A stretch of 64,000 bases of DNA from Polyangiales bacterium (GCA_041389885.1 JAWKRB010000006.1:259101-323100), one strand, 5' to 3'; counted from the first letter of the stretch, positions 7,610-37,576 are shown. Numbers and translations are program-made. Notes: generated by a model from the sequence alone, not told the origin.

Positions 7610-7664
7610 CTCGCACCAGATCCTTCGTCGCGTTCGGGGGGGCGTGAGAGGTAGCATCCCGGGC

Positions 7665-15399: not shown

Positions 15400-18300
15400 T
15401 CAGCGGAGCGTGCCGTATCCGAGGATGCGAGACGCGTAGCGCGTGGCGTCGATCAGCCCGACGTAGTTGTGAAAGCGGGTGACCGCCTCGGCGTTGCGCT
15501 GCAGGTCGCGGTTGGCCGGCACCGGCTCGCGGGTGGTCGGGTCGAGCACCACGCGGTAGCTCCCGTCGGGGTTCTGCACCGGCCGACCGGAGAGGTCGAG
15601 CTCCACCTGGTAGGTGTCGCGCATGAGCAGGTTGGCGTGCGCGAGCATGCGCGAGGCGATGCCGCGGTCGGTCTCGACGCCGTCGACGCGGTCGGCCTCG
15701 AAGCGCCGCGCGACGTACACCACGCCGGTCTCGGGGTTGCGAAAGCGCACCCGCTCCTCCTCAGGCACGTCGACGGCCTCGGCGCCGCCCTCGGTCCAGA
15801 TGCGGAGCTTCTGGATCGTGGTGAGGTCCGAGTTGAGGGAGGAGAAGAGCATCGAGTAGACGACCGTCGGGAGCTCCTGGCGGTACCCGATGTTCGGGAA
15901 GAGAACGCGCGAGCCCGAGGGGCGCAGCGGCTCGCCGAAGGGGTCGCTGCGGGTCGGGGTGGTCCAGAGCGGCATGAGCTCGGGGGTGAGCGCGGTGAGG
16001 TTGCCCTCGCCGTCGATGCGCGGCGCCGTGGGCACGTGCATCGCCACCGCGTCCCAGTCCTCGGAGAGGATCCCGCCGAGGAGGCGGTCGTAGGCGCGCG
16101 GCATGTCGTTTCGGAAGTTCAGCTGGAACTCCCGGCCGTCGAGGAAGAGCGAGCGCGAGATGCTCGAGAAGGTCGGCCTCGTGTCGGTCAGCATGATCGC
16201 CGCGAGCGGCTTCTCGGGGTACGAGCCCGCGCGGCGCACGTACGAGTGGTAGTCCCACGAGCCGCCGATGGTGTTGTCGTACTCCTCGCCGATGAAGCGA
16301 CCGTCGCCGATGCTGATCTCAAACTGCGGCTCGTCGCCGGCGTTGTCGGGCACGTCGAAGAGAGGGCGGGTCTCCATCGGGAGCGGGCGGTTCGTCACCA
16401 GCTCGTAGTTGCCCGGCTCGGGTCGGAGCATCACGCCCGCGAAGAAGTCGAAGATCGCCGGGCCCGCCATGAGGTACGGGCGGAGCCAGTTGTCGTCGCG
16501 CGTGAGCCGCTCGTAGAGCCCCGACGAGAAGGCTTGCGAGTAGTACGCCGTGTCGCGGGCGACCGACCAGTGGTAGCCCCGCAGGCGGCGGAAGATCGTG
16601 CGCGCGAGGTAGTACGGGATGTTCATCCGGCCGAACTCGCGCTGGCCGCGGCGGAAGTACATCGACGCGTACGTCAGGTTGTACTTCTGGATCATCGACT
16701 GGGTGACCTCGTACGGGTCGGCCCCCTGGTCGAAGTAGTTGATGTGGGGGTAGCCCGTGGCGATGTCCCACCCCACGCGGTAGCCCCAGCGGAGCACCCC
16801 GCCGCCGGTGCGCGCGTCGCTGCGGGTGCGCCACATCGGGGCCACGCGGTCGGAGGTCGTGCTCGTGGGCGAGCTCTCGAAGTCGGTCATCGCCGCGTGG
16901 TCGCGGGGCGCGAACGAGCAGAGCTGGCCGTCGACGATGCGCCAGCGGTACCGAGCCTTCTCCTGCTCCGTCGCCGGGCGGCAGCGGCCGGGGTCGAACA
17001 CGCGCAGCTGCCGCGCGAGCTCGGTGTAGTGGATCGGGAGCACGCCGGTCTCGTTGAGCACCGGGTCGGTCCACTCGATCTGGTCGAGCTCAGAGAGCTG
17101 CGAGCGGAGCCTCGGCGCGAAGCGCTGCTGGTCCTCCGGCGCGAAGCCCCCGCGGGCGGTGTCGGGCTCCATGGTCTCGATGACGCGGCCGTAGAGCAGC
17201 CCCATCGCGTACACGTCGTACGAGCCGAGCCCCACGGTCTCGCCGAAGCGCTCCCACTGGTACTCCATCGTCGACGTGTTGCCGAAGTAGTTGATGCCCG
17301 CGTGGGGCGCGCTGCCCTCGGCGACGCCCTGCTCCTCGTCGCTGGGCGGGTCGATGTAGCGCGGGCCCATGCAGTTGTCGGCGTTGCGGTCCGCGTTGCG
17401 AATCGGGTTGCAGCTGTTCTGCGTGCAGCTCGGCAGGCAGGTCGAGGCGGCGGCGTTGTTGCGCGTGCGGAGCTGCCAGTACTGCGGGTTGTAGTTCATC
17501 GAGTCGTAGCTCGACGGGGGCATGTGGTAGAGCCCGAGCGAGTGGCCGATCTCGTGGAGCTGAATGCCCTTGTAGGCTTCGGTCAGCAGGTCGTCGTAGA
17601 TGCGCCGGGCGCGCTCCTCTCGGCTGAGCGTGCCGTAGCGCTGCTGAAACCACCGCGCGACGCCGCGCATGTCCTGGCTGCCCACGACCGCCGGTGCGCC
17701 GACGTCCTGGAAGCAGAAGCCGTGCCCCTCGAGGCGCTGCTGGAGCTGGTTGCGGGTGAGCTCCGCGGTGTCAGGGTCCATGCGGCGCAGGGGCGAGACC
17801 TGGTCGAGAAAGCTCGCTGACCGAGCCGCCGAGGGGTCGAAGCCGAGGTTCGAGAGCCAGTGCTCGTCGATCATGTCGGCCTCGATCGAGGTGTTCTGCA
17901 GCTGCGACGCGAGGGCGCGAAACTGCTGCGCGGAGCGGGTCGAGTCGGCCGACACGGGGCGCGCGGAGGCGAGGGCGCGGTCGTGGTTCTCCAGCGCCTG
18001 GCTCGCGTCTCGCGCCGCCGGCGCGCGAACGCCGGTGCTGGACGACAGGTTCGCGAGGTCGATGGCGCGGGCGCGCGCGCCCATCTCGGCGGGGGAGAGG
18101 GCGGGCGCGGCGGCCGCCGCGGGGTTGCGGAGGTTGCGCGCGAAGTTCTGCGCCGCGGCGCCTTCGACGTACTCGCTGACGTCGAGGTCGCCGATCATCA
18201 TCAGCACGTAGTCGCGCTGCTGCGCCGCCGCGAACTCCGCGGAGCGGCCCACGGTGAGCCCGCCGTTGGAGACCACCTCGCCGGTCAGGGGGTCGTAGCC

Positions 18301-19947: not shown

Positions 19948-20048
19948 TCTCGACCTCCTGAAATGACGGACGGTTCAAACAGGCCGTCGGCGCTGGGGTT
20001 TTCAGCGCCGACGCTTCGCGCGGACCCTACTACGATCCAGCACGGTCG

Positions 20049-21470
20049 TCAGGGCGAGACGCGGTGCTCTTCGCCGACCCGGCGGCCCTGGGCGTCGTAG
20101 CGGGCGAACCACACGTCCACGCCCCCGCCGCGCACGTCGGTCCACGCGATGCCGAACTCGCGGCCGTTCCACGCGACGCTGGGGAGGAGCCCCATGGAAT
20201 TGCGGGTGACCTGGGTGACGGCGCCCAGGGGCTTGCCCTCGCCGTCGAGCCGGGCGAGCCAGACGTCCAGGCCGTCGTCGCCGATGGTCGTCCACGCCAC
20301 CGCGTAGACCCCTCCGCCGAACGCGATCACGGGCTGCACCTGGAACCTGTCCCTCCGCGTGACCTCGCGGCGGGGCACGTCGACGCGGCCCGGCGACACC
20401 GCCGCGAAGGCCAGCCGGTTGAGGGGCGTGTCGTCGTCCTCGGCGGACATCTCGTCCTCCCAGATCACGCCGAAGTTCCTGCCCGACCACGCGAGGTTGG
20501 CGCTGCCGCACCGCTCGGCGCGCTGGGCGACCTTGAGCGGCGCCGAGGCCTCGCCGCCGGCGCCCACGCGGAGAAAGAGCGTCTCGGCGCGCTCGTCGCG
20601 CGGGATGTACGTGTTGAAGGCCACGCCGTACGCGTCGCCCGTGAACGCGAAGCCCAGCAGCCCGCTCGCGGCGAAGCGGCTGTGGAGGGTGGTGTCTCCG
20701 CCGACGCGGGCGCCGTCCTGGCCGTAGCGCGCGAAGCGCGCGCTCATCTGCGCCGCGACCGAGACGCCGTACCAGGCCGCGGCGTACTCGCGGCCGTTCC
20801 ACTCGACGCGCCCGCCGAAGTTGAAGCCGTCGCCGCCGAGGGTGATGGGCTGACCCTGCGCGGCGCCCTGCGCGTCGAGGCGGAGCACCCGCGTCGCGAG
20901 GTCGTTGTCGCCGATCTCGGTGTACGCGAGGGCGAAGCCCGCGGGGCCCGCGGCGAGGTCGGGCATGACCTTCACGGTGTCGGCGTTGGTGAGCCGACGC
21001 GCCGCGCCGACGCGCTTGCCGTCGGCCTGGAGCCGCGCGAACCAGACGTCGAGCCGCTCGTCTTCGATGCCGAGGAACGACAGCGCCCAGCCGTCGGCGG
21101 TGGGCGTGAGCGTCGGGGAGATCCACGCGTCGGCGTCGTCGGCGGCGGCGCGGAGGACGCGCGCGCTCATCCCCGTGACATCGACGCAGCGCTCGCCCGC
21201 GCCGCAGGTCAGGTCGCTGGCGCAGAAGGTCCCCGAGCGCGCGCACTGCCCCCCGGCGACGAGGATCGCGCGGGCGGGGCGTCGCGTCGCGGCGCGGGCG
21301 GGCTGAGGGTGCGGCGTCGGCGCGGCGCCGCGGGTCATCGCGAAGGGCGCGCTCAGGCCCAGGGCCGCGACGCAGAGACCGAGGGTCCTCCAGCGCCGGG
21401 GGTTGCGCGAGCGGTCGAGGCGCGCGAGGTGAAGGAGCATTCCAGCGATCGAGGTGGGACGACGGGACAT
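20049..21470 (-). CDS. Secreted repeat protein with W-x-G-R/W-x-G-x-x-F/Y-x-x-x-W motifs (beta-propeller-like)
   Basis: Internal repeats WNGREYAAAW / WSGRNFGVIW / AFGGGVYAVAW / WNGREFGIAW, each followed by DVWFARL-type strands. Paralogue at 35912..37195. Confidence 0.5.
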   Translation of the reverse strand: MSRRPTSIAGMLLHLARLDRSRNPRRWRTLGLCVAALGLSAPFAMTRGAAPTPHPQPARAATRRPARAILVAGGQCARSGTFCASDLTCGAGERCVDVTGMSARVLRAAADDADAWISPTLTPTADGWALSFLGIEDERLDVWFARLQADGKRVGAARRLTNADTVKVMPDLAAGPAGFALAYTEIGDNDLATRVLRLDAQGAAQGQPITLGGDGFNFGGRVEWNGREYAAAWYGVSVAAQMSARFARYGQDGARVGGDTTLHSRFAASGLLGFAFTGDAYGVAFNTYIPRDERAETLFLRVGAGGEASAPLKVAQRAERCGSANLAWSGRNFGVIWEDEMSAEDDDTPLNRLAFAAVSPGRVDVPRREVTRRDRFQVQPVIAFGGGVYAVAWTTIGDDGLDVWLARLDGEGKPLGAVTQVTRNSMGLLPSVAWNGREFGIAWTDVRGGGVDVWFARYDAQGRRVGEEHRVSP

Positions 21471-21586
21471 AGCGTGTGTTGCCTCCAGGAGGAGCGCCGG
21501 CGGGCACCGGGGGGCCCGGACGCCGTGGCTCGCAACGATACAGCGCCGCGCGCGGGACGCCAGCGTGGTAGAAGCATCCCACCGCC

Positions 21587-22426
21587 GTGAACGCCGATCG
21601 CGACCTCTCCCTTCGTGCCATGACCGACGACGGCTCGCTCCGCGTGATCGTCGTCGACGTGACTGAGACCGTGCGCGAGTCTGCTCGCGCCCAGCGCGCT
21701 GACGCCGCCGAGGCGAAGTGGCTCGGAGACCTGATCGCCGGCACCGTCATGATCCGCGAGACGATGTCGCCCGACCTGCGCGTGCAGGGGATCCTTCAGA
21801 TCGGCGCGGGCGCCTTCGTCGCCGACTCGCACCCCGACGGGGGCAGCCGGGGGCTGATCCAGCGCGGCTCGAAGGCCTCGTCCGCCGACGGCGCGCGGCT
21901 CCAGATGATGCGCACGCTCCCGCGGGGCAGCGTGCAGCAGGGGATCGTTCGCGTCGACGAGCGCGTCGGGGTCTCCGACGCGCTCATGCGCTACCTCCAG
22001 CACAGCGAGCAGGTCGAGTCGGCGCTGGCGGTCTCGACGCTGGTGCAGGGCGGCGAGGTGATCGCGGCCGGGGGCTACCTGATCCAGCTCCTCCCCGAGC
22101 TCGACGAGGCGACCCTCGCGCTCGTCACGGCGCGCCTGCAGGCCTTTCCGACGATGGAGGCGCTGCAGGGGGGCGCGGCCACCGTCGACGGGGTGATGGC
22201 CATGCTGCTCGAGCACCTGCCCTTCACCGAGCTGGCCCGGGGGCCGCTCCGCTTTCAGTGCCGCTGCGATCGGGCGCGGCTCATCCAGGCGCTCGCGTCG
22301 GTCGGGCGCGGCGAGCTCGAGTCGATGATCGCCGAGGCCAAGCCGCTCGAGATCGGCTGCGACTACTGCAACGCGCAGTACACCCTCGAGGTGAGCGAGC
22401 TGATCCCGCTGCTTCAGCCCAACTGA
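21587..22426 (+). CDS. hslO: Hsp33 redox-regulated chaperone
   Basis: C-terminal zinc centre CRCDR...CDYCN plus an Hsp33 N-terminal domain. Alternative start at 21620. Confidence 0.75.
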   Translation: MNADRDLSLRAMTDDGSLRVIVVDVTETVRESARAQRADAAEAKWLGDLIAGTVMIRETMSPDLRVQGILQIGAGAFVADSHPDGGSRGLIQRGSKASSADGARLQMMRTLPRGSVQQGIVRVDERVGVSDALMRYLQHSEQVESALAVSTLVQGGEVIAAGGYLIQLLPELDEATLALVTARLQAFPTMEALQGGAATVDGVMAMLLEHLPFTELARGPLRFQCRCDRARLIQALASVGRGELESMIAEAKPLEIGCDYCNAQYTLEVSELIPLLQPN

Positions 22427-22435: not shown

Positions 22436-23821
22436 TCAGCCGTCGTCGTCGCTCACGAAGGTCTCGACCTCGGTGAGCCGCGCGTCGATCTCGCTGAAGC
22501 GCTCGGCGAGGCTCCGCACGAAGCGCCCGAGCCACGCGTTGGCGCCGAGCTGCTCGGTGATCGACTCGCGGGTGAGCTCATAGGCGGTCACGGCGTCGAC
22601 GGCTTGAATGCTCGCGCTCCTCGGTCGGTTGGTGAGCACCGCGGTCTCGCCGAAGACGTCACCGGGACCGAGGTGGCGAAGGGTGCGCCGACGACCGTCG
22701 ACGGTCTTGAACACCTCGCAGTGGCCCGCCGTCACGATGTACGCGGTGACGCCAGGCTCGCCCTCGGCGACGATCATCTCGCCCGGCGCCCACTTGCGCA
22801 GCACGAAGCGGTCGGTCCCGCGGACGTAGCGCTCGATGTCCGCGCGGAGCTCGGCGACGGAGCCGTAGCGGTCGGCGGGCGAGGGCGCGAGGGCCTTCAT
22901 CGCGATGCGCGCCAGGGCGGGCGGGTAGTCGCCCTCGGCGACGACCTCGTCGATCGGGGTGACGTCGCCGCGGGTGGCGCGGAACACGGTCTCCCAGTAC
23001 GAGCCGCCGCCGTGCGGGGTGCAGCGGGTGATCATCTCGTAGAGCACGCCGCCGAGGAGGTACACGTCGGTGCGCGAGTCGATGTCGCGACGGTCGCCGG
23101 AGGACTGCTCGGGCGCGGCGTACGCGGGCGTGCCGACGAGGGTCTTTCGACCGCTGGGCTGCACCACGGAGCTGCGGGGATCGTCGACATCGAGGTGCCC
23201 GGCCGCGAGATCGGCGGCCTCGCCCCTCGGGTCGAGCCGCGCCATGCCCCAGTCCATGAGGTAGACCTGTCCGAAGGAGCCGACCATGATGTTCTGCGGC
23301 TTGATGTCGCCGTGGATCACCCCTCGGTTGTGCGCGAACGCGACGGCGTCGCAGACCTTGAGCAGCGCGTCGAGGAGCCCGTCGAGGCGGCCGCTGCGAA
23401 AGGGGAGCACCTCGTCTCGGTGGATCTCTCCCTCGAGGGTCTCGCCCGCGACGAGCTTCATCACGAAGTAGTGGCGCCCCGAGGCGTCGACCCCGAGCTC
23501 GTGCACCGGCACGATGTTCGGGTGGTCGAGCTGGCCGGTCACGCGGGCCTCGGCGATGAAGCGGTGCACCGCGTCGGAGTTCGTCTCGAGGGCGTCGTGG
23601 AGCACCTTCATCGCGACGCGACGCTGGAGCTCCTTGTCGATCACCCGGTGCACCGCGCCCATGCCACCGCGGCCGAGCACGCCGTCTTCGTCGAAGCGCA
23701 GCGACGCGCTCCGCAGCGGGACCGACCCGCCGCCCTCGGACTCGGCAGGCGCCAGGACCGTGTCGGTGTGGCGCGCGCTCAGGTGCTGCTTCGACTGTCG
23801 TTCGTCCGACACTGCACGCAC
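22436..23821 (-). CDS. Ser/Thr protein kinase fused to a C-terminal cyclic-nucleotide-binding (cNMP) domain
   Basis: Kinase motifs GRGGMGAVH, AMKVL, HGDIKPQNIMV, DWG. C-terminal cNMP fold FGETAVL...RSASIQA. Confidence 0.75.
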   Translation of the reverse strand: MRAVSDERQSKQHLSARHTDTVLAPAESEGGGSVPLRSASLRFDEDGVLGRGGMGAVHRVIDKELQRRVAMKVLHDALETNSDAVHRFIAEARVTGQLDHPNIVPVHELGVDASGRHYFVMKLVAGETLEGEIHRDEVLPFRSGRLDGLLDALLKVCDAVAFAHNRGVIHGDIKPQNIMVGSFGQVYLMDWGMARLDPRGEAADLAAGHLDVDDPRSSVVQPSGRKTLVGTPAYAAPEQSSGDRRDIDSRTDVYLLGGVLYEMITRCTPHGGGSYWETVFRATRGDVTPIDEVVAEGDYPPALARIAMKALAPSPADRYGSVAELRADIERYVRGTDRFVLRKWAPGEMIVAEGEPGVTAYIVTAGHCEVFKTVDGRRRTLRHLGPGDVFGETAVLTNRPRSASIQAVDAVTAYELTRESITEQLGANAWLGRFVRSLAERFSEIDARLTEVETFVSDDDG

Positions 23822-23869
23822 TTTTACGCGCGGGCCGGGGACGGCACAAGGGACCGAGGCGCTCGCGGG

Positions 23870-26767: not shown

Positions 26768-28345
26768 GTGCGGGTGCCGCTCCATATCAAGCTGGTGATC
26801 AGCTACATCCTGGTGGTGGGCCTCGCGCTCGTGCCCACCGCGGTCTACCTCCGCACGTCGCTGCAGAAGGAGCAGGTCGCGAGCGTTCGCCAGCAGCTCC
26901 GCGCCGACCTCACGGTGCTCTGCGGGAGGCTCCGGAGCGGGTCGCCGGCCGAGCTCGCCGCGCGAGCGGGCGCGTTTCGCTTCTCGGTGCTCACCCGCGT
27001 CACCGTGATGAACGCCTCGGGCGACGTGCTGGTCGACTCGGAGCGCCCCGACGTATCGCTCCCGAACCACGGAGACCGCGCGGAGTATCGAGACGCGCTG
27101 GCGAGGGGCGAGGGCTCGGCCGAGCGCGTCAGCGCGACCACCGGTCGGCGCATGCTCTACGTCGCGCGGCGCTGCGGGGACGCGGGCGCGCAGGCCTCCG
27201 TCGCGCGCCTCGCGGTGCGCCTCGACGGCATCGAGAGCGGCCGCGCGAAGATCGAGGGCGTGCTGCGCAACGCGGGCGCCGTGGCGCTCTCCGCGGCCGT
27301 GCTCCTCGGGCTGGTCGCGGCCCTCGTGGCCGTGCGGCCGCTGCGCGCCATCGCCTCGGCCGCGCACGCCATCGCGAAGGGAGATTTCGGCACCTCGCTG
27401 AGCGTCCACACGGGCGACGAGATCGAAGAGGTCGCGCACGCGATCAACTCGGTGGTCGACATGCTGCGCGACCGGCTGGTGGCCAGCGGCGCCGAGCGCG
27501 CGACGACCCAGGCGCTCCTCGACGAGCTGCCCGTGGGGGTGGTGGTGTACGACGCCGATCGACAGCCTACGCGGCTCAACCCCGCCGCGAGGCTGCTCTG
27601 CGGGCTCGAGCCCAACGTCGAGTCGGTGCGCTGCGCGGAGCTCGCTCGCCTCCCTGGGCAGCGCGCCGCGATGGAGCGCGCGGCGGTCGAGGCCAGGGGA
27701 GAGCCCGTCGCGCTGACGCTCCCGTGGATGCCCTCGGCGCGGCTCCGCGCGCGCTGGGTGCGCGTCTACGACGACGGCGGCGGCGACACCGCGGCGGTGA
27801 TCCTCGCGGACGCGTCGATCGAGCTCGCGCTGGAGGAGCGCGGCGCTCGGTTGCGGGAGGCCGCCTCGGCGCTCCGCCGCGTGGCGTCTTCGATCGCCGA
27901 CCCGATCGAGGCCACGTCGCTCCACCGCCTCGCCGACCGCTGCGGGGAGGTGGCCTCCTCGGGCGCTCCCGACGCGCCGCTGAGGGTCGAGGCCCTGGGC
28001 GCGCTCATCGACCGCGCGTGGTCCGAGCTCGGCGCGGTCGGCGGCGGCAGGGCGGTCGAGGTCGCGGGCGACGGCGCGGTCGACGTGTCGGTGGCCGAGC
28101 GAGGTGAGCGCTGCCTCGACGCGCTGCGCTCGCTGCTCCGCTGGGCGGCGGAGCCCCCTGGTGAGAGCGGGGTCGAGCTGAGGGTCACGCACGAGGGGGC
28201 GACGGTGCGCGTGAGCGCGAGGCGGCCCCTCGGGAGCGACGAGCCCTTCTTCGCCGCGCGGGCGCTCCGGGCGCTCTCGGGCGACGCGGGCCAGCGATTC
28301 GGAGAGGACCATGAAGAGCGCTGGCTCTCCCTCCCCTGCGCCTAG
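26768..28345 (+). CDS. Membrane sensor with HAMP domain and a degenerate histidine-kinase-like C-terminus (no clear H-box Asn/His)
   Basis: N-terminal TM, periplasmic-like region, second TM, HAMP (VRPLRAIASAAHAIAKGDFGTSLSVHTGDEIEEVAHAINSVVDMLRDRL). C-terminus resembles HATPase but lacks the N-box Asn. Confidence 0.55.
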   Translation: MRVPLHIKLVISYILVVGLALVPTAVYLRTSLQKEQVASVRQQLRADLTVLCGRLRSGSPAELAARAGAFRFSVLTRVTVMNASGDVLVDSERPDVSLPNHGDRAEYRDALARGEGSAERVSATTGRRMLYVARRCGDAGAQASVARLAVRLDGIESGRAKIEGVLRNAGAVALSAAVLLGLVAALVAVRPLRAIASAAHAIAKGDFGTSLSVHTGDEIEEVAHAINSVVDMLRDRLVASGAERATTQALLDELPVGVVVYDADRQPTRLNPAARLLCGLEPNVESVRCAELARLPGQRAAMERAAVEARGEPVALTLPWMPSARLRARWVRVYDDGGGDTAAVILADASIELALEERGARLREAASALRRVASSIADPIEATSLHRLADRCGEVASSGAPDAPLRVEALGALIDRAWSELGAVGGGRAVEVAGDGAVDVSVAERGERCLDALRSLLRWAAEPPGESGVELRVTHEGATVRVSARRPLGSDEPFFAARALRALSGDAGQRFGEDHEERWLSLPCA

Positions 28346-28955
28346 CGGCGGGCGCTCGACCGCGCGCTCCAAGCCGGGGCGTCGCAAGCGCGAGGGGCTC
28401 GTCGTGCAGGCCGAGGTGCACGACCGCCACCAGCTCGAGCTCCGCTTCAACCACCCCCTCGACGACGAGGGCGGCTGGCGCCTCGACATCGACGCGTTCT
28501 TCTTCGTCCCGCGCAACGTGGGCCTCAACCCCGGCAACTATTCGCGCGAGCAGTTCTACGCAGATTTCACCGCCCTGATGCGGGTCGACGCGCAGCCCAT
28601 CCCCCTGGACGTGCTCGCCGACGAGGGCGACCCCGCGTCGCCGCTCTACCGCTTCGTCGAGGCGCTGGAGCGCGCGCGGCGCGAGGCGCGTCCGCCCCCG
28701 ATGAGCCCGGTGAGCGTGCAGATTCGTCTCTTCGCGAACCTCTTTGCCACAGGCGTTCGAGAGGAGCTGCGGCGGCTCGAGCGCGCCCTCGAGCGAGAGC
28801 TCGGCGAGGCGGGGCTCTTTCGCGCCCGTCGTCTGAGCTCGCGGACGAGTCGACCCGACCTTCGCTCGAGCGCTCGTTCGAGGCCGACTCCGTCTCCGCG
28901 CGCTGAACCGCGCGGGGGGCGCTCTGGGCGTTTCCGCAAGGTCCGCGCGCGCTGA
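28311..28955 (+). CDS. Hypothetical protein; the C-terminal ~40 aa look out of frame (possible frameshift near 28820-28830)
   Basis: The first ~170 aa have protein-like composition and then degenerate into an R/S/P tail. An alternative frame gives acidic ...SELADESTRPSLERSFEADSVSAR* ending at 28906. Confidence 0.35.
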   Translation: MKSAGSPSPAPSGGRSTARSKPGRRKREGLVVQAEVHDRHQLELRFNHPLDDEGGWRLDIDAFFFVPRNVGLNPGNYSREQFYADFTALMRVDAQPIPLDVLADEGDPASPLYRFVEALERARREARPPPMSPVSVQIRLFANLFATGVREELRRLERALERELGEAGLFRARRLSSRTSRPDLRSSARSRPTPSPRAEPRGGRSGRFRKVRAR

Positions 28956-28993
28956 GGCCCTTCGAGCGCCTCTGCCCGCAGCAGCTCGCCGAC

Positions 28994-30097
28994 GTGATGC
29001 GGGCCTGCGACGAGTACATGTCCCTGGTGCTCGAGGAGCGCCTCGCGCAGCTCTCACAGCGCGTGGGCGCCGACCCGCGCCGCTTCGACGGCAGCGGCTT
29101 CGTGCCCGGCGTGCGCGGCCAGATCGTGGCGCTCGCGGAGCAGGAGCGGGTCTACCGCGCGCGCTACGGCTACCTCACCCTCGACGAGGGCTCGGCGCGC
29201 GGGGAGACCGACGCGTTTCAGCGCTCGCAGGGGGTGGTGGGCGCCGGGGAGTACTTCACCTACCGCGCCTCGCTGCTGAAGAAGCACGTGCAGCAGGCGC
29301 TCTACCTCGACGTGCGCGGATCGCGCGGAGACACGTACATTCGCAACGCGGTGAGCGCCGTCGGCGCCGCGCTGGCCGCGATCTGGGCCCTCGCCGCGCA
29401 GGTCCCGACGCAGATCGCGGGCCTGCCGACCCGAACGCAGTTCGCGCTCTTCGGCGGCGCGGTGCTCGCATACGTCATGAAGGACCGGATCAAGGCCAAC
29501 ACCAGCGAGTTTCTGCTCAAGCGCGCCCGCACCTTCGACCACGTCTCGTGGGTGCGCGGCGAGAGCCTGGGCGAGCTGGGCCTGGGCTCGCTCAAGGTGA
29601 AGGTCTCGGAGGCCGTGCGCTTCGTGAGCGTCGACGCCCTCGAGGCCCCCGTGCGGGCGGTGCGCGCTCAGCGGCGCACCGTACGCCACGCGGGCGTCGC
29701 GCAAGAGGAGGTGATTCACTACCGCAAGCGCATCGCCTCGGCGGGCCGCGCGGGGCAGGCGGCGGCGCCGGAGGGGTACCGGCTGCGCGACCTGCTGCGC
29801 ATCAACATCCGGCACTTTCTCATTCGCCTCGACGACCCCGAGGACCGGGTCGACTACTACGACCTCAGCACCCGCACGTTTCGCTCGGCGCTGCTCCCCA
29901 AGGTCTACCACGTGAACCTGGTGATCCGCCTGCGCCGCACCGTGGGGGGCGAGCGGCGGGAGCGCCTCGTTCACCTGCGCATCGTGCTCAACAAGGACCG
30001 CATCGTGCGGTGCGACGAGATTCGCGCCCGCGGCGACGGGCGCGCCCAGGGGGCGAAGGGCGCGAAGGGCGAGAAGGGGGCAAAGAAGAAGGGCTGA
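28994..30097 (+). CDS. Hypothetical protein with a central two-TM hairpin and Lys-rich C-terminus
   Basis: GTG/ATG at 28994/28997. TM segments AVSAVGAALAAIWALAAQV and FALFGGAVLAYVM. C-terminal GAKGAKGEKGAKKKG. No recognised family. Confidence 0.45.
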   Translation: MMRACDEYMSLVLEERLAQLSQRVGADPRRFDGSGFVPGVRGQIVALAEQERVYRARYGYLTLDEGSARGETDAFQRSQGVVGAGEYFTYRASLLKKHVQQALYLDVRGSRGDTYIRNAVSAVGAALAAIWALAAQVPTQIAGLPTRTQFALFGGAVLAYVMKDRIKANTSEFLLKRARTFDHVSWVRGESLGELGLGSLKVKVSEAVRFVSVDALEAPVRAVRAQRRTVRHAGVAQEEVIHYRKRIASAGRAGQAAAPEGYRLRDLLRINIRHFLIRLDDPEDRVDYYDLSTRTFRSALLPKVYHVNLVIRLRRTVGGERRERLVHLRIVLNKDRIVRCDEIRARGDGRAQGAKGAKGEKGAKKKG

Positions 30098-30258
30098 GCC
30101 CCGCGGGGCTCAGAGCGTGTCAGATCGGTCTCGCTGGGACGCCGTGGTCGAGGTGCGGGTTCGGCAGGGACGCTCGACCGCCGCGCAAGCGAGAGCGGAC
30201 GACGACGCGCGAAGCAGATCGGCCGCGAGCTGACGGAGAAATCCTCGCCAACAGCCTC

Positions 30259-32405
30259 TCAGTCCTCGGCGTCGGGGACGGTCTCGCCCCGCTCGCGGAG
30301 CCACTTGCGCATCTCGTCCTTGTCGATGGCCTTCTCGAGCGCGGCGGTGCCCTCGATGAGTCCGTCGTCCGCGAGCTTTCGCAGCGCGTCGTCCATGGCG
30401 ATCATCCCGGCCTTCTTGCCCAGCTTGATGAGGCCGCCGATCTGGTGGGTCTTCCCGTCTCGGAGCAGGGAGGACATGGCGGGGTTCGCGAACAAGATCT
30501 CGACCGCCGCGCACCGCCCGCCCCCCTTCTTGCGCAGCAGCTGCTGCGCGACGACGGCCTTCGTCACCGACGCGAGCGTGCCCCGCACGCCGGCCTGCTT
30601 GTCGGCGGGAAAGACGTTGATGATCCGGTCGAGGGTCTTGGCCGCGGAGTTCGTGTGCAGGGTGCCGAAGACGAGCACGCCCGTCTCCGCCGCCGAGAGC
30701 GCCATCGAGATGGTCTCGAGGTCGCGCATCTCCCCCACGAGGATCGCGTCGGGGTCCTCGCGCACCGCGGCGCGGAGCGCGGTGGAGAAAGCTCCGCGAG
30801 TGCGGCCCGACTCGCGCTGGGTCATCAGCGAGCTTGTTGGGGTGCACAGAGTCGATGGGGTCCTCGATGGTCACGAAGTGCACTGCGCCGCGTGGCGTTC
30901 ATCTCGTTGATGATCGCCGAGAGCGTGGTGCTCTTGCCCGAGCCCGTCGGCCCGGTGACCAGCACCAGGCCCGAGCGCATCGACACGATCTGCTTGATCG
31001 CCTCGGGTAGCCCGAGCTGCGCCACCGTCATCAGCTTCGTCGGGATGATCCGAAACACCGCGCCCATGCCCCGCTCCTGCTTGAACAGGTTGACGCGAAA
31101 GCGCGAGAGCCCTGGGACTTCGTAGGCGAAGTCCATGTCGCCAGACGCGAGGTACTCGGCCCAAAGGTGCGGCGGCGCGATCGGCTGCACCAGGCCGCGA
31201 AAGTCGTCGTTGTCGAGGGTGCGGTACCGAATGGGCTCCATGCGACCGCTGAGGCGAAAGATCGGCGGCCGCCCCACGGAGAGGTGCAGGTCGCTCGCGC
31301 CGCGGTCGTTCATGAGCTTCAAGAAGCGGTCGATGCGGTTCTGACCAGGCGCGCCGGGCGCGATGCTCGCCGCGGGCTTCGCCGACTTCGCCGTCGGCGC
31401 GTCGCCCAGCAGGGCGCTGAGCGCCGTAGGGTTCGCCGCGAGGGCCTCGAGGGTCTGCAGCACCTCGGGCGCCAGACGGGGGACCGCGGGCGCGCGTGGC
31501 GAGTCGGCTCCGAACTCCTGGCCGGGCGCCGCGGGCGGGGCCTGCGGAGCGAGGGGCGGGGCCTGCGGAGCCAGGGGCGGGGCCTGCGGTGGAGCCGCGC
31601 GCGGCGGCGTCGGTCGGGGCTCCGCCGCGGGGAGTTCGGGCTCCGTCGGACGCGCGCCCATCGCCACGGGCGGCGGGCGGTCGAAGGCGACCTCGATCTC
31701 CTCGACGGCGCGCGTGGCCTCGGCCACGAAGGTCGGGCTGGGGGGAGGCTTTGAGTCGGGGAGGACGACCCACTCCTGCACGAGGGACATCGGATCGGTC
31801 CACAGCGGTCGAATCGGCCGCTCGGGCGCGTGCGCCTCGATGATCGGAGCCACCTCGACCTCGACCGGCGCCGCGGAGGGGCGGCGCTCCGGCGGGCGTG
31901 AGTCCTTCTCTTCGATGAGGTTCAGCTCCAGGGGCTCGACGTCGTCTGGGATCTGCACCCACGACGTGCGAGTGAAGGTCGGCTCGATCGGGAGCTCCTC
32001 GTGCGCGATGGACGGCGGCGGCACCTGCACCCTCGCGATGACGCTCTCGTCCTTGATGCGCCCCTGGGGCGTCGCGGCGTCGGGAAAGAACACGGGCTCA
32101 GACGGCCGCGGCGGGCGCGCGCTCCCCGGCGCCCCGCGCTCCTCGCGGACACGGGGGCGGACGAACGGCTCCTCCGCCGTCGGGCGCCGCTCGACGCGCT
32201 CCTCGACGACCGGCCGACGTCGGAGTCGATCCTCCGCGCCGGAGGGGATCGAGACACGCTCCTCGACGATGGCCCTCCGAGGCGCCCGGTCGGGCGGCGA
32301 GGGGCGCGCGTCGAACGACTCCGGCGACGGCGCCCCGTCGTCTTCGCGCCTGGGGTCGAGGCCGCGGCTCGGCCTCGCGCCGAGGGGTGGCTTGCTCCCG
32401 CTCAC
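30259..32405 (-). pseudogene. PilT-family (type IV pilus retraction-like) ATPase with ~350-aa Pro/Glu/Arg-rich N-terminal extension; two apparent frameshifts inside the ATPase core (pseudogene or sequencing errors)
   Basis: Frame A gives the N-terminal extension plus ASDLHL...GPTGSGKSTTLSAIINEMNATRR, then garbage. Frame B gives HFVTIEDPIDSVHPNK. Frame C gives LMTQRES...REDPDAILVGEMRDLETI...GTLHTNSAAKTLDRIINVFP to the stop at 30259. The GTG at 32405 overlaps the upstream TGA (GTGA). Confidence 0.5.
31530..31600. repeat. Three imperfect ~21-bp direct repeats (gggcggggcctgcggagc-) encoding (PQAPPLA)n in the PilT-like N-terminal extension
   Basis: Read directly: cgggcggggcctgcggagcgag / gggcggggcctgcggagccag / gggcggggcctgcggtggagc. 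Confidence 0.5.
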
Positions 32406-34849
32406 GACGCCGCCCCCGTGAGCCGGGCCTCGAACTGCTCCTTGTTCTCCGCTCGCATGTAGGCCGTCTCCGCCGTGATGAGCCCGGCGTCCAGCAGGTC
32501 TGCCAGGCTCTGATCGAGCGTCTGCATCCCCTGCGCGCGAGAGATCTGCATCAGGCTCGGGAGCTGGTAGGTCTTGCAGTCGCGAATGAGGGTGCTGACG
32601 TTCATCGAGCCCTTGAGCACCTCGAAGACGGCCACCCGCCCCTTGCCGTCGGCGCGGGGGACGAGCGACTGCGAGACCACGAACTTCAAGCTCTCTGAGA
32701 GCCCCATGCGCACCTGCTGCTGCTCGTCGGGGGGAAAGCTCTCGATGAGCCGGTCGATCGTCGCGACGCAATTGGTGGTGTGCATCGTCGCGATCACGAG
32801 GTGCCCCGTCTCGGCCGCCATGAGCGACATGCGGATCGTCTCGATGTCGCGCATCTCGCCCACCATGATCACGTCGGGGTCCTCGCGGAGCGCCGCGCGC
32901 AGCGCGCGGCTGAAGCTCTCGGTGTTGCGCCCGACCTCGCGCTGATTGACCAGCGACTGCTTCGAGGGGTGCACGAACTCGATGGGGTCCTCGAGCGCGA
33001 TGATGTGGTCGCTCTTGCTCTCGTTCACGAGGTTGATGATCGCCGCGAGGGTCGTGCTCTTGCCGCCGCCCGCGGGGCCCGTCACCAGGATGATCCCCTG
33101 GTGGTAGTCGAGGAGCTGGGTGAGCTGGCCGGGGATGCGGAGGTCGGCGAAGGTCGGCGGGAGGTTCGGGATGCTGCGAAACGACGCGCAGGTGCCCAGC
33201 CGCTGCACGAAGGCGTTCGCGCGGTACCGCCCCACGCCGGGGATGGCGTGGCAGAAGTCGATCTCGCCGTGCTCCTCGAAGGACGCGCGGCGGGTCGGGT
33301 CGAGGATCTCGAGCACCCACTCCCGGGTCGTCTTGGCGTCGAGGGGCGGGTGCTCGACGCGCTCGAGCTGACCGTTGAGCCGAAACCACGGAGGCTCGCC
33401 CACGGTGAGGTGCACGTCCGACGCCCCGCGCTCCCTCGCGTCGGCGAGGAGACGGTCGAGGGGGCGCGAGAGGTCGCCTGAGACCACTGTCGACGTCGCC
33501 GCGTCGAGGCCGGCGCCGGTGTCTCCCTTCGCCCGCAGAATCTCCGCCGCCCGCATGCGCACGTCCTGGCTCGGGTCGCTCTCGACCACCTTGCGGAACA
33601 GCTTCGAGAGCCGCGGGTCGGTCGAGCGCGCGCAGGCCTGGAGCACTTCCATGCGCACCTCCTGCCGGTCGTCGTTGAGCAGCCCCACCAGCGCCCGGAG
33701 CGCCTGCTCCCCGCCGATCACCCCCAGCGCGTCGATGGCCGCCCAGCGCGTGTCCTTGTCGTCGAGCGCCTTCACCAGGTGCGGCGTGACCCGCTCGTCC
33801 TTGAGCTTCGCCAGCGTCTCGCAGGCGGTGATGCGGAGCCACCAGTCCTCGTCGTCGAGGAGCTTCACCACGGGGCCGACGAGCCTCGGGTCCTCGAAGT
33901 GCTCGCAGAGCACCAGCGCCTGCATCCGAATGTCGTCGTCGGGGTGCCCGAGCATCTCCACCGCGGGGCGCAGCACCTCGTCGCCGAAGGTGCGCAGGGT
34001 GTTCAAGATCCGGGTGCGGAGCCAGCCCAGCAGCGTGCGGCAGTGGTGGAGGATCTCCGCGATGACCTCCGAGGGAGAGCCCGTGCTCAGCAGCAGCTCC
34101 ACCGCGGTCCTCCGGATCGAGTCGTCGCCCTCGGAGAGCATCTTGAGCAGCCTCGGGCGAACGCGCGCCGGCATCGCCGCCGCCGCCGCCCGCACGGAGG
34201 TCAGTGCGTGTGAGCGCACCGTCGCGTTGTCGTTCGCGAAGCGGTCGAGCATCACGTCGAGCACCTCTTCAGACGGCGGCAATTGCGCGAGGAGCTCGAT
34301 GACACGCTCGCGCAGCCGGTCCTCGGGGTCGGCTACCAGGCTCATGAGCAGCGGCGCCAGCTGCTCGGGGCTCCGGTCCGCCGCGAGGCGCTGCAGCGCC
34401 GCGACGCGAATCGGCCCGGGGGCCTCGCGAATCGCGCGCTCGGCGAAGGTCGCGCGCGCGTCGCCGCCGAGCTCCAGCGCCACCTCCCAGCCCAGGCGCT
34501 TGCGCATCGCCGAGGCGTCCTTCAGCAGCACCTCGAGGCCCGGACCGACCACCTCGGGGCGAACGCGACCGAGCACCCGCACCGAGAAGGCGCGGGCGGC
34601 GGCGTGCTGCCCCGGCATCTCCCCGAGCAGCGCGGTCACCGCCTTCGCGTCGGCGCGCGACGCGAAGACGGTCGCCGCCGCGTTGCGCACCGTGTTGTCG
34701 CTCATCGAGAGGAGCGGGATCACGTCCGCGGCCCGCACCCCGGCGTCTTCGCGCAGCGAGTCCAGGAGCTGAGCCTTCTCGTCGTCGCTCTTCCACTGCT
34801 GCTGGACGAGCCGTTGCAGCGGCGAGCGTGAGGTGCCGAACAGGGCCAT
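32402..34849 (-). CDS. HEAT-repeat (PBS-lyase-like) domain fused to a complete PilT-type ATPase
   Basis: N-terminal ~450 aa of HEAT-like repeats (…VRMEVLQACARSTDPRL…, DDDIRMQALVLCEHF…). C-terminal ASDVHLTVGEPPWFRLNG...GPAGGGKSTTLAAIINLVN...HIIALEDPIEFVHPSKQSLVNQREVG...REDPDVIMVGEMRDIETI...ATMHTTN. Start set to ATG 34849 to avoid overlapping xerC. Confidence 0.65.
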   Translation of the reverse strand: MALFGTSRSPLQRLVQQQWKSDDEKAQLLDSLREDAGVRAADVIPLLSMSDNTVRNAAATVFASRADAKAVTALLGEMPGQHAAARAFSVRVLGRVRPEVVGPGLEVLLKDASAMRKRLGWEVALELGGDARATFAERAIREAPGPIRVAALQRLAADRSPEQLAPLLMSLVADPEDRLRERVIELLAQLPPSEEVLDVMLDRFANDNATVRSHALTSVRAAAAAMPARVRPRLLKMLSEGDDSIRRTAVELLLSTGSPSEVIAEILHHCRTLLGWLRTRILNTLRTFGDEVLRPAVEMLGHPDDDIRMQALVLCEHFEDPRLVGPVVKLLDDEDWWLRITACETLAKLKDERVTPHLVKALDDKDTRWAAIDALGVIGGEQALRALVGLLNDDRQEVRMEVLQACARSTDPRLSKLFRKVVESDPSQDVRMRAAEILRAKGDTGAGLDAATSTVVSGDLSRPLDRLLADARERGASDVHLTVGEPPWFRLNGQLERVEHPPLDAKTTREWVLEILDPTRRASFEEHGEIDFCHAIPGVGRYRANAFVQRLGTCASFRSIPNLPPTFADLRIPGQLTQLLDYHQGIILVTGPAGGGKSTTLAAIINLVNESKSDHIIALEDPIEFVHPSKQSLVNQREVGRNTESFSRALRAALREDPDVIMVGEMRDIETIRMSLMAAETGHLVIATMHTTNCVATIDRLIESFPPDEQQQVRMGLSESLKFVVSQSLVPRADGKGRVAVFEVLKGSMNVSTLIRDCKTYQLPSLMQISRAQGMQTLDQSLADLLDAGLITAETAYMRAENKEQFEARLTGAAS

Positions 34850-34937: not shown

Positions 34938-35918
34938 ATGAGCACGGGGATGGCCGAGGCGCTGAGCGATTTCGAAACCTACCTCGCTCACGAACAGCGC
35001 GCGTCGCCGCGCACCGTCGAGCACTACCTCCGCGACCTGCGCACGCTGGAGACCTTTCTGCAGCGAGGCCGCGACGTCGCGCCGACCCTCGGCGACGTGA
35101 CCCTGCTCGCGCTGCGCGCCTGGCTCGGCGAGCGCGCGAAGGGGCGCGAGGGATCTACGATCGCGCGAAACGTCGCGAGCGTTCGCGCGCTCTTTCGTTG
35201 GGCGCGCAAGACAGGACGGGCCGAGCAAGACCCCTCGGCCACGCTGCGCTCGCCCAAGCTGCGACGCCCCCTCCCAGATCTGCTGTCGGTCCCCGACGCA
35301 GGGCGCCTGATGGAGACGCCGGGCACCCGCAGGATCGCCCGACCGGAGGGGGTGGTGCTCCGCGCCACGAGGGCGCGGATCGCGTTGCGCGACAAGGCGA
35401 TGCTCGAAGTCGTCTACGGGAGCGGGCTCCGTATCTCCGAGGCGGTGGGGCTCTCGCTGAACGACATCTCGCTCTCGCCCCGCGCCGCGCGGGTGCTGGG
35501 CAAGGGCTCGCAGGAGCGGATCGTTCCTCTCGGTCGCTCCTGCGTCGAGGCCCTCGAGGCCTGGCTCGCGGTGCGCCACGAGATGGTCGACCCCCGTACT
35601 GGCGCCCAGGACCCCGACGCGCTCTTTCTCACCCGCGCGGGGAGGCGAATCACGGTGCGGCAGGTTCAGCTCTCCTTCGCGGCCTACGGAGAGCTCGCCA
35701 CGGGCACCCCCGGGGTGCACCCGCACCAGCTCCGGCACGCCTGCGCCACGCACCTCCTCGACGCCGGGGCCGACCTGCGAGCGATTCAAGAGCTCTTAGG
35801 TCACTCGTCGCTCTCGACCACCCAGCGGTACACCCACGTCTCCATGGACCAGGTCATGAAGGTCTACGACGGCGCCCACCCCCTCGCGCGCTCTGCCGCC
35901 GAGGGCGACGATCAGTAG
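34938..35918 (+). CDS. xerC: Tyrosine recombinase XerC/XerD family
   Basis: N-terminal core-binding domain (FETYLAHEQRASPRTVEHYLRDL). Catalytic R...HxxR...Y (LRHACATHLL, TQRYTHV). Alternative start at 34950. Confidence 0.7.
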   Translation: MSTGMAEALSDFETYLAHEQRASPRTVEHYLRDLRTLETFLQRGRDVAPTLGDVTLLALRAWLGERAKGREGSTIARNVASVRALFRWARKTGRAEQDPSATLRSPKLRRPLPDLLSVPDAGRLMETPGTRRIARPEGVVLRATRARIALRDKAMLEVVYGSGLRISEAVGLSLNDISLSPRAARVLGKGSQERIVPLGRSCVEALEAWLAVRHEMVDPRTGAQDPDALFLTRAGRRITVRQVQLSFAAYGELATGTPGVHPHQLRHACATHLLDAGADLRAIQELLGHSSLSTTQRYTHVSMDQVMKVYDGAHPLARSAAEGDDQ

Positions 35919-37195
35919 CCCCGAATCGGGCACGGCCCGAGCGCCACCCGGTGCAGCGTGAGCGACCCGGCCGCGGCGGAGATCAACGCGAGGGTGTCTC
36001 CCCCCACGGTGACCACCGGGCGCCCCGCGCTGCCGTCGTGGTCCTGGACCTCGACGCGGCCTTCCTGCAGGCGCGAGCTCGCGTCGAGGGTGCGCACGCG
36101 CAGCCGCGCCCGGCCCTCTCGCGACACCAGCCACGCGGCGACGACCGAGCCCTCGCCCGCGGGCGCGAGGGCGGGGGTGTCGGCCGACTCGCCCTCCTCC
36201 CGAAGGTCGAGGGCGTCGCCGATCAGGTTGCCCCGCGCCGTCGCCCTGCGAACAAAGACGTGCGACGCGCCCGCGGTGACCTCGCTCCACGCGACGAAGA
36301 AGCCCGAGCCGTCCCAGGCGATGGCGTAGCGACCGCGGGGGTCGATGCCGCCGATGGCATGCGGCGTCAGGCGGTTGAGGGAGCCCAGGGTGTACCCGCG
36401 AGCGTCCATGCGGGCGAACTCCACGCGCAGCACCTCGCTCTGCACGCCGAGCGCGCTGACGCCCCACTGCGACCCCGTCCACACCAGGCCCGTCTCGGCG
36501 AGCGACACGCCGGTCTCAAGCAACATCGCGGGGAACGCCCGGGGCGCGTCGAAGGCGTCGAGCGCCTGCGCGTAGAGCCGCCATCGGCCGACCGAGGTGC
36601 GCGACACCCAGGCGATGCCGAAGCCCTGCGCCGTGCTCTCGATGCGCGGCTGGAGGTCGGTGCGGCGGCGCTCGCGGGTCATGCGCCAGGGGCGCCCCGC
36701 CGCGGTGCCCCGCGCGTCGACGCGGCCCTGGTAGATGTCCTCGGGCTCGCGCAGCCCGCCGCTCCACACGACGACCCAGCTCGTGCCGTTCCAGGTGATC
36801 GCGGGGTCGGCGGCCTGGGTGTGCGTCTCGCTCAGGCGCAGAGGGCTCCCGAGGAGCGCGCCGTTCGCGGCGACCCTCGCGAAGCGCACCATGCGCTCAC
36901 CGTCGACGGTGTCGCCCCAGACCACGCCGAAGTGCGTCCCGCTCCACGCCACCGACACGCCCGCGAGCGCCTCGACGTCGGCGATCGGCGTCGGGGGCGA
37001 GGCCCGCAGCGCGCAGCGTCGGGACGCGTCGAAGCGCGGCGCCGGCGCGTCGACCGCGGGCTCGACGACCCTCCGGTGCGACGCGGGCGCGCGGCGGTCG
37101 CAGCCCGGCCCGGCCGACAGCGTCAGCAGCGCGAGCGCTGCGCACGAGCCGGCGCGGCGGGGGCGGGGGCGGGCCCTGTTGCGTGGTGCGGTCAT
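35912..37195 (-). CDS. Secreted W-x-G repeat (beta-propeller-like) protein, paralogue of 20049..21470
   Basis: ATG at 37195. Repeats VAWSGTHFGVVWGD / ITWNGTSWVVVWSGG / QGFGIAWVSR / LVWTGSQWGVSALG / IAWDGSGFFVAWSEV. Signal-like N-terminus. Confidence 0.5.
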   Translation of the reverse strand: MTAPRNRARPRPRRAGSCAALALLTLSAGPGCDRRAPASHRRVVEPAVDAPAPRFDASRRCALRASPPTPIADVEALAGVSVAWSGTHFGVVWGDTVDGERMVRFARVAANGALLGSPLRLSETHTQAADPAITWNGTSWVVVWSGGLREPEDIYQGRVDARGTAAGRPWRMTRERRRTDLQPRIESTAQGFGIAWVSRTSVGRWRLYAQALDAFDAPRAFPAMLLETGVSLAETGLVWTGSQWGVSALGVQSEVLRVEFARMDARGYTLGSLNRLTPHAIGGIDPRGRYAIAWDGSGFFVAWSEVTAGASHVFVRRATARGNLIGDALDLREEGESADTPALAPAGEGSVVAAWLVSREGRARLRVRTLDASSRLQEGRVEVQDHDGSAGRPVVTVGGDTLALISAAAGSLTLHRVALGPCPIRGY

Positions 37196-37228
37196 CGCGG
37201 CGAACGCCCGTGGTGTATACGATCGCTC

Positions 37229-37576
37229 ATGCCGACGCGTGAACGATATGTGTGGGTGTGCACCAACCGCCGCCCCGATGGTCACCCCAAGGGGTCCTGC
37301 GGCGAGCGCGGCGCCGAGTCGCTGAAGGACGCGCTGAAGATCGCCTGCGCCAAGGCGGGCCTCGCGCCCCGGGTTCGGGTGATGCACTCCGGGTGCATCG
37401 ACCTGTGCGAGCGCGGCGTCGCCGTCGCGGTGATGCCCGACGACGCGCTGCTGGGAGGGGTGACCCTCGACGACGTCCCCGAGCTCGTCACGGCGCTCGC
37501 GGAGGGCGGCGTGCGGGCGTCGGCGGCGATGCGTGGACGCTCGATCCGCGACGAGGACCCGGGCTCGGGGACATGA
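37229..37576 (+). CDS. Thioredoxin-like [2Fe-2S] ferredoxin-family protein
   Basis: Four Cys with the spacing C-x13-C-x~32-C-x3-C (VWVCTN...GSCGE...SGCIDLCE). Confidence 0.55.
   Translation: MPTRERYVWVCTNRRPDGHPKGSCGERGAESLKDALKIACAKAGLAPRVRVMHSGCIDLCERGVAVAVMPDDALLGGVTLDDVPELVTALAEGGVRASAAMRGRSIRDEDPGSGT

Follow-up and report, generated by a model that had tools for sequence, protein, structure and literature searches.

Motors of the PilT family rank with the strongest molecular machines known, and in well-studied species pilT and pilU lie apart from the pilus structural genes. PilB, GspE, and MshE combine a hexameric motor of the T2SSE type with an additional domain at the N terminus, through which partners or ligands are bound. 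Myxococcus xanthus encodes five PilT paralogs, and the roles of most of them are unresolved; deletion of the three additional paralogs resulted in social (S) motility defects of varying degree, the strongest being those of MXAN_0415 and MXAN_6706 (PMC13584747). MXAN_6706 and MXAN_6705 are adjacent PilT paralogs that lie at a distance from the main pil cluster and are conserved across Myxococcales, and the long N terminus of MXAN_6705 is predicted to be disordered (PMC13584747). A tandem pair of PilT-type genes is also found in the 64,000-nucleotide (nt) stretch of a Polyangiales bacterium genome analyzed here (GCA_041389885.1, JAWKRB010000006.1:259101-323100, referred to as the window). The upstream gene (gene 1) encodes a fusion of a HEAT-repeat solenoid with a PilT ATPase (HEAT-PilT). 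The downstream gene (gene 2, the representative of a family designated g2) encodes a second PilT core preceded by a low-complexity extension, in a reading frame that is broken in the window. The HEAT-PilT gene and its g2 partner form a real, conserved two-gene module that is found in many uncultured Myxococcota-like genomes. The pair bears on the question of how bacteria with several PilT paralogs split the work among them.

The HEAT-PilT fusion

In gene 1, a HEAT solenoid of approximately 440 amino acids (aa) is joined by a short, flexible linker to a complete PilT core, all in one open reading frame (ORF) with a G+C content at third codon positions (GC3) of 0.88 to 1.00 throughout. In Pfam searches, its N-terminal half matches HEAT_2 (E = 4e-38), as well as HEAT, HEAT_EZ, and HEAT_PBS, and its C-terminal half matches T2SSE (E = 8e-45). 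The HEAT region exceeds the gathering threshold of HEAT_2 (PF13646) and shows the repeated antiparallel helix pairs of a solenoid. The NCBIfam model of the PilT/PilU family, TIGR01420 (pilT_fam), has a curated cutoff of 319.1 bits; it scores 428 bits with gene 1 and covers profile positions 2 to 342 of 343 at aa 464 to 804. The AlphaFold 2 (AF2) model, based on a 65-sequence alignment, has a mean predicted local distance difference test score (pLDDT) of 85. It contains approximately 28 helices over aa 10 to 440 at a pLDDT of about 90, then a lower-confidence linker (aa 441 to 462), then the PilT core, with the PAS-like N-terminal domain and the RecA-like C-terminal domain of the PilT fold. The N-terminal sequence MALFG is kept across the HEAT-PilT family, and the solenoid contains the invariant motifs GWLRTRIL, DWWLRITAC, and RWAAIDAL. 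In the closest relative (locus L001, GCA_046351575.1), gene 1 is 86% identical, and the ratio of nonsynonymous to synonymous substitution rates (dN/dS) between the two HEAT domains is 0.25. A preliminary description of the window had placed HEAT repeats ahead of a complete PilT core in gene 1, and the hidden Markov model searches and structure prediction that it proposed bear this out.

It had also named the case that would speak against such a fusion, a HEAT region belonging to a separate upstream gene with its own stop codon. This case, like that of a fusion produced by annotation or assembly, is vanishingly improbable and is in fact refuted. The frame is free of stop codons from aa 1 to 815 and its GC3 phase is continuous; more than 120 independent assemblies and 80 species-representative genomes show the same architecture of approximately 815 to 830 aa; and the AF2 model was called confident across the junction, with lower confidence in the linker.

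The gene 1 product is 100% identical to a GenBank entry (P0001, on a 356-kb contig) annotated as [quoted passage not shown] and databases tag the HEAT-PilT proteins only generically, as members of the PilT/PilU family. A search of 5.8 billion proteins with gene 1 yielded 162 matches, and more than 160 clusters of HEAT-PilT proteins exist. The 120 that were listed show 50 to 87% identity, are nearly all full length and mostly 812 to 880 aa long, and every one of them contains both HEAT_2 and T2SSE. In their alignment, the N-terminal 460 residues are nearly gapless, and residues 276 to 400 match the ATPase core in conservation. When 1.84 billion cluster representatives (clusters at 50% identity) were scanned exhaustively with HMMER, at least 33 clusters were found to align across residues 1 to 810 of gene 1 at 32 to 55% identity, and approximately 29 further clusters have larger HEAT arrays and lengths of 850 to 1,336 aa; the module is widespread, with at least 60 clusters at 50% identity. 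In the same scan, the best PilTs lacking HEAT repeats reached only about 50% identity to the gene 1 core, and the HEAT-PilTs therefore make up a separate deep clade. No protein from a cultured organism was found among the HEAT-PilT matches or among the g2 relatives at ≥60% identity. Literature searches combining PilT and HEAT found no paper describing a HEAT-PilT fusion, and the HEAT-PilT and g2 module was found described in none of the papers searched; accessory N-terminal domains on sister ATPases and multiple PilT paralogs are already well known.

The two-gene module

The conservation of the pair was examined in a scan with the HEAT domain only against one genome per species (GTDB), which gave 104 loci. 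The best 80, all of them metagenome-assembled genomes (MAGs), were taken and combined with L001 into a set of 81. A g2-type PilT, 63 to 86% identical to the window gene 2 core, lies directly downstream of the HEAT-PilT gene in 72 of these 81 related loci, and most of the nine others are cut by contig ends. The window shows the same arrangement, with the same order and strand, a GTGA overlap, and a PilT with a variant His box directly after HEAT-PilT. In 51 of the 72 loci, the g2 start codon and the stop codon of the HEAT-PilT gene overlap as ATGA or GTGA, and the frame opened there leads into the g2 core without an intervening stop codon. Three further g2-type proteins were checked by context. 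Two lie behind a HEAT-PilT gene with the same 4-nt overlap, and the third (L088) follows a T2SSE gene that overlaps it and is truncated at the beginning of the contig. Both the tandem arrangement with its 4-nt overlap and the synteny of the pair, which the preliminary description had proposed to check, are recurrent features of the family. Since gene 2 starts on the stop codon of gene 1, the two proteins are probably made together in a fixed proportion, and the recurring 4-nt overlap fits translational coupling. The two ATPase cores in the window are approximately 45% identical to each other.

Clustering of the flanking ORFs showed only the two PilT genes to be common to 78 loci; the next most frequent neighbor, xerC, was found in 11 of 78. 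A conserved third module gene was considered and rejected, as xerC is limited to these 11 loci and the convergent downstream gene to a subset of the near clade.

Family assignment and catalytic motifs

Gene 1 retains all four catalytic boxes: Walker A (GPAGGGKST), the Asp box (LEDPIEFV), Walker B (DPDVIMVGEMRD), and the His box (AAETGHLVIATMHTT). Its family likewise keeps these boxes, with both histidines of the His box. In gene 2, Walker A and Walker B are intact, the Asp box reads IEDPIDSV and falls within a patch of indels (see below), and the His box, AAETGVLVFGTLHTN, lacks the first His. The latter is a family-wide trait. The g2 His box has the form AAETG[VLT]LVFGTLHTN, with the first His replaced by Val, Leu, or Thr in 47 of the 57 members scanned, the other 10 being without a His-box match; the second His and the three other boxes are intact across the g2 family. 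Neither family retains an unbroken AIRNLIRE motif, which is degenerate in both proteins (NVSTLIRDCKTYQL in gene 1 and AMSSLLRDGKTHQI in gene 2, versus AIRNLIREDK in Pseudomonas aeruginosa PilT).

With the frameshifts in gene 2 corrected, TIGR01420 scores 402.7 bits and covers profile positions 2 to 343 of 343. This score and that of gene 1, both above the cutoff and with full coverage, assign the two proteins to the PilT family. Among solved structures, both proteins come closest to P. aeruginosa PilT (337 bits for gene 1 and 328 bits for gene 2). The scores with PilU (9n32) are 269 and 231, respectively, and neither gene is PilU-like. The DotB model, at 151 versus a cutoff of 463, is far below its threshold, and the PilB and GspE models give 135 to 143 bits versus cutoffs of 630 to 676. 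Canonical PilTs have approximately 345 to 400 aa and no accessory domains; both proteins are longer, at 815 aa for gene 1 and approximately 714 aa for the repaired gene 2. PADLOC returned only generic HEAT-ARM and P-loop matches and no defense-system membership.

The N-terminal extension of gene 2

The repaired gene 2 encodes a Pro/Glu/Arg-rich extension of approximately 350 aa followed by a full PilT core. The extension contains 21% Pro, 11% Glu, and 11% Arg, with three [IV][VR]EER motifs and three PQAPP[LA]A repeats (aa 273 to 293). Its GC3 in the gene 2 frame is 0.82 to 0.97. The composition, the EERV-type and PQAPPLA repeats, and the codon bias in favor of a coding sequence had all been pointed out in the preliminary description, and all three were found again here. 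The closest intact orthologs (P0122 to P0125) are 67 to 74% identical to the repaired protein, three of them over the full length and P0124 over 86% of it. They share KDESVIARVQVPP, APERPIRPLWTDPMSLVQEWVVLP, a helix pair just ahead of the core, and SKPPLGARP, which is common to the N termini of P0122, P0123, and P0125. In the AF2 model of P0122, residues 1 to 258 have a pLDDT below 50 and no secondary structure and are followed by a short helical hairpin (residues 261 to 280) with a pLDDT of about 82.

In the Polyangiales-like clade of nearer relatives, the reading frame of g2 is open from the gene 1 stop codon to the core and the extension comprises 100 to 336 aa, compared with approximately 350 aa in the window; in other assemblies, gene callers give single g2 products of 460 to 702 aa. 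More distant relatives have a plain PilT of approximately 360 aa as g2, without the extension. Among 18 relatives, the extension has a GC3 of 0.82 to 0.98 in 16 and a Pro content of 12 to 29% in all 18, and REER-like motifs, 1 to 14 per extension, are present in 16. Judged by these comparisons and by the model, the gene 2 tail is a coding, predicted disordered, and fast-evolving segment that is specific to one lineage. The concern that the extensions of the two genes might be nonconserved and lack codon bias is thus removed for the HEAT domain, which is conserved, and a coding GC3 bias is present in both extensions; the g2 extension is confined to the nearer clade and variable in length. In L001, the gene 2 extension carries four copies of an ITEERVGRPA repeat.

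The broken reading frame of gene 2

The preliminary description had treated the interval 30259..32405 as a single gene. The extension and the PilT core are both present there, but not as one ORF: the interval of 2,147 nt is not divisible by three, and gene 2 is not intact in the window. The frame that starts with GTG at 32405 covers the low-complexity region and the first half of the PilT core and stops at 30825 after 526 aa. Its translation ends with ...GPTGSGKSTTLSAIINEMNATRR and then runs out of frame up to the stop codon. The Asp-box segment, HFVTIEDPIDSVHPNK, sits in a second frame, and the C-terminal part forms a 188-aa ORF (30259..30825) in a third frame that contains REDPDAILVGEMRD and the His box quoted above. 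Only by switching from frame to frame can the family consensus, ...TR.MHFVTIEDPIEFVHPNKKSLMSQREIGPHSKSFS..., be read, and the invariant EF of the Asp box reads DS. Four indels with a net change of -1 are found within 98 nt: +1 near 30885, -2 between 30833 and 30832, -1 between 30811 and 30810, and +1 near 30788-30790. The GC3 phase changes at 30884 and 30830, the same places as the frame breaks. Beyond the breaks, the C-terminal part has a GC3 of 0.95 to 1.00 and is 89% identical in amino acid sequence to L001, with a dN/dS of 0.09 at a dS of 0.40. GenBank carries only the truncated 526-aa product (P0121), and this record of the source MAG deserves an annotation flag, as the truncation is probably due to local indel errors.

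Of the other 70 loci with a gene 2, all but two have it intact; L043 has a split gene 2, and in L071 gene 1 is likewise split. In L001, the sister MAG, gene 2 has several frameshifts at other positions (12445..13600), in the extension and the N-terminal part of the core. The gene convergent to gene 2 in the window (28311..30097, plus strand) is also frameshifted, between approximately 28796 and 28874. It is an ortholog of a 580-aa protein of L083 that has no Pfam match. Residues 12 to 155 of that protein align in one frame (28356..28796) and residues 185 to 573 in another (28874..30034), so the 367-aa and 214-aa ORFs of the window are two pieces of one gene. An FHA domain had been considered for the convergent gene, as a gene convergent to gene 2 in L083 carries a weak FHA tag, and was rejected. 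The Pfam scan of the window ORF was without FHA, and its ortholog in L083 is the gene for the 580-aa protein and not the one with the tag. Programmed frameshifting or phase variation in gene 2 was likewise rejected, in view of four noncompensating indels (net -1), no repeat tract, and a location in the invariant Asp-box region.

Table 1. Features of the HEAT-PilT/g2 locus in the window
Feature	Coordinates	Strand	Remarks
Gene 1, HEAT-PilT fusion	32402..34849	minus	815 aa, uninterrupted ORF; ATG 34849, TGA 32404..32402
N-terminal HEAT/alpha-solenoid domain, gene 1	33515..34849	minus	aa 1 to ~445
Complete PilT ATPase core, gene 1	32438..33460	minus	aa 464-804
GTGA overlap, gene 2 start on gene 1 stop	32402..32405	minus	sequence GGCGTCGTGAGCGGG
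N-terminal extension, gene 2, predicted disordered	31356..32405	minus	~350 aa; rich in Pro, Glu, Arg, Ala
21-nt tandem repeat encoding (PQAPPLA)x3	31533..31589	minus	Tandem Repeats Finder: period 21, 2.7 copies, 97% matches
N-terminal half, gene 2 PilT core	30825..31355	minus	GTG-start frame; stop 30825..30827
Indel and clustered-substitution patch at gene 2 Asp box	30788..30885	minus	three-frame translation; DNA alignment with L001, L003, L010
C-terminal part, gene 2 PilT core	30259..30830	minus	third frame; Walker B, His box, C-terminal domain; stop 30259..30261
Terminator-like hairpin 3' of gene 2	30094..30113	minus	160-nt gap between convergent genes; 8-bp stem, 6 GC pairs

Gene neighborhoods

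The pair is surrounded by genes for Hsp33, a Ser/Thr kinase, fumarylacetoacetase, a HAMP sensor, XerC, an aminotransferase, UbiB, and a TPR protein, as well as a product with weak matches to the N-terminal domain of homogentisate dioxygenase and to cupin domains. No pilus structural genes were found within approximately 15 kb on either side of the pair, in agreement with the preliminary description. In Sorangiineae and Nannocystineae, only the pilMNOPQ genes form a cluster and the other genes for the type IVa pilus (T4aP) are dispersed (PMC6060248). For this reason, and because pilT and pilU of well-studied species are themselves separate from the structural genes, a lack of pilus genes near the pair is uninformative. 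A consensus scan of the region for terminator-like sites such as the one listed in Table 1 found 3 versus 1.2 expected, which is weak evidence for a terminator.

In three distant loci, L061 (4270..11584), L072, and L074, genes for a 745-aa single-chain PilT-PilT fusion and a 480-aa DcuC-type C4-dicarboxylate carrier lie ahead of the HEAT-PilT and PilT pair, again with 4-nt overlaps, which makes four PilT cores per cluster. The taxonomic labels of several MAGs that carry the module are implausible (L025, L032, L037, L039, L043, L075, and others, labeled as uncultured Enterobacterales, Rickettsiales, Bifidobacterium breve, or Cognaticolwellia). Their sequences are high in G+C and Myxococcota-like, and the labels probably record placeholders or errors.

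Elsewhere in the window, a 1,524-aa ORF (15400..19974, minus strand) with a GC3 of 0.96 has no Pfam match at an E value of ≤0.001 and adjoins a 565-aa ORF (20049..21746) that is also without a Pfam match. A Ser/Thr protein kinase fused to a cyclic-nucleotide-binding domain is encoded at 22436..23869 (minus strand). L001 has a 477-aa sigma-54 response regulator between a 373-aa hypothetical gene and a 111-aa gene (6274..7707), and the corresponding part of the window (35918..37230) has no equivalent of this regulator.

Possible functions of the pair

Taken together, the pair probably represents accessory T4aP retraction-type motors with a HEAT docking module and a g2 tail that acts as a tether, the break in gene 2 being an artifact or a recent lesion. 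The two proteins would be diverged, coexpressed PilT-family hexameric motor ATPases that function in the manner of PilT/PilU or MXAN_6706/MXAN_6705. The six HEAT arms of a gene 1 hexamer might serve as a protein-docking platform for localization or regulation, and the gene 2 tail, with its [VI]REER-type repeats and Pro-rich spacers, might be a lineage-specific tether; a scaffold or localization role of the two extensions is plausible. The assignment of both proteins to the PilT family and the conservation of the module are direct observations, and a pilus role, docking, and coassembly are inferred.

Several points weigh against this interpretation. The HEAT-PilTs are a separate deep clade and not close orthologs of any studied PilT. 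What is left of AIRNLIRE in both genes is only L-x-R-[DE]-x-K (VSTLIRDCK in gene 1 and MSSLLRDGK in gene 2). Given the established T4aP architecture, six N-terminal solenoids of 50 kDa each might get in the way of docking below PilC within the PilM ring. The likeness to MXAN_6706/MXAN_6705 is one of shared layout, namely, adjacency and one N terminus predicted to be disordered. Finally, eight other neighboring genes are intact relative to L001, and a real lesion in gene 2 is accordingly possible. This last point, the presence of the frameshifts in the deposited sequence with its annotated 526-aa product, and the disruption of L001 gene 2 at other positions, which could mean relaxed selection in the sublineage, would all fit a genuine, recent pseudogene with a biological indel patch, in which case only HEAT-PilT would still be functional. 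Such a pseudogene is rather unlikely. The gene 2 break most probably reflects an error of the consensus or assembly, or else a very recent lesion, and not a long-standing loss, because the sequence downstream of the breaks keeps its low dN/dS and high GC3, the damage is confined to 98 nt, the adjacent unrelated gene is frameshifted as well, L001 has separate gene 2 frameshifts of its own, and gene 2 is intact in nearly all other loci. Four indels and clustered substitutions amid clean sequence also resemble a local consensus error.

Other functions of the pair were weighed in the same manner. A non-pilus function, as suggested in the preliminary description, had been based only on the missing pilus genes nearby and, given the dispersed T4aP genes of these suborders, loses that basis. 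PilT-type motors recruited to another envelope machine or to substrate remodeling, with the HEAT domain and the tail providing new partners, are improbable, as the cores score well above the PilT/PilU cutoff and far below that of DotB, and no alternative machine adjoins the pair in any locus examined. The loss of the first His in g2 brings up a different possibility, namely, a regulatory role for the gene 2 product, which, with attenuated catalysis, would join HEAT-PilT in mixed rings or dock to it, with the REER tail as a ligand of the HEAT groove. This, too, is quite unlikely. The g2 family keeps both Walker motifs, the Asp box, and the second His; HEAT is equally conserved in the many lineages with a tailless g2, so that the tail cannot be the main HEAT ligand; and Vibrio cholerae PilT and PilU are reported to be homohexamers (PMC6821130). 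A similarly low likelihood is given to a dedicated two-motor complex, apart from the canonical PilT, in which the HEAT arms would recruit a cargo, a polarity factor, or another envelope machine to HEAT-PilT and its obligate His-box-variant partner. If true, this would mean a deep uncultured clade of a PilT-type motor that is repurposed for, or regulated by, a process other than standard T4aP retraction. The HEAT docking domain, the conserved coupling geometry, and the family-wide His-box change in g2 offer testable predictions on partner recruitment, coassembly, and catalytic asymmetry.

Comparison with known systems

Single-chain fusions of two PilT cores, such as the 751-aa protein of Chondromyces apiculatus (P0221), also link two PilT cores in Myxococcota-like genomes but do so without HEAT repeats. 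Proteins of this family, with two T2SSE domains (P0221/L085, 8001..10256, and dozens of matches of 720 to 770 aa), are found in Chondromyces, Byssovorax, Eremiobacterota, and others. Their halves are 38 to 47% identical to gene 1 or gene 2 and are not orthologs of either, and the use of these 720- to 770-aa fusions as Rosetta-stone support for an interaction between gene 1 and g2 was rejected because of this low identity.

In comparison with the structurally characterized PilT and PilU proteins (P. aeruginosa PilT, 3jvu; Aquifex aeolicus PilT, 2ewv; and PilU, 9n32), gene 1 stands out by its N-terminal HEAT solenoid of approximately 440 aa, which no studied PilT or PilU has. The pair also differs from tandem pilT-pilU operons: gene 2 is closer to PilT than to PilU, the first His is lost in g2, AIRNLIRE is degenerate, and the genes overlap by 4 nt. 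With regard to M. xanthus, no HEAT domain is described in any of its PilT paralogs (PMC13584747), whereas gene 1 of the window has one. HEAT proteins of the PBS type, such as alphaRep, Escherichia coli YibA, the bilin lyases CpcE/F, and NblB, are stand-alone repeat proteins or lyases, and the gene 1 solenoid is set apart from them by its fusion to a motor ATPase and by its own invariant motifs. The design of an N-terminal add-on to a motor is shared with PilB, GspE, and MshE, but in the present pair the core is of the PilT type and the added domain has a HEAT fold instead of the N1E/MshEN fold.

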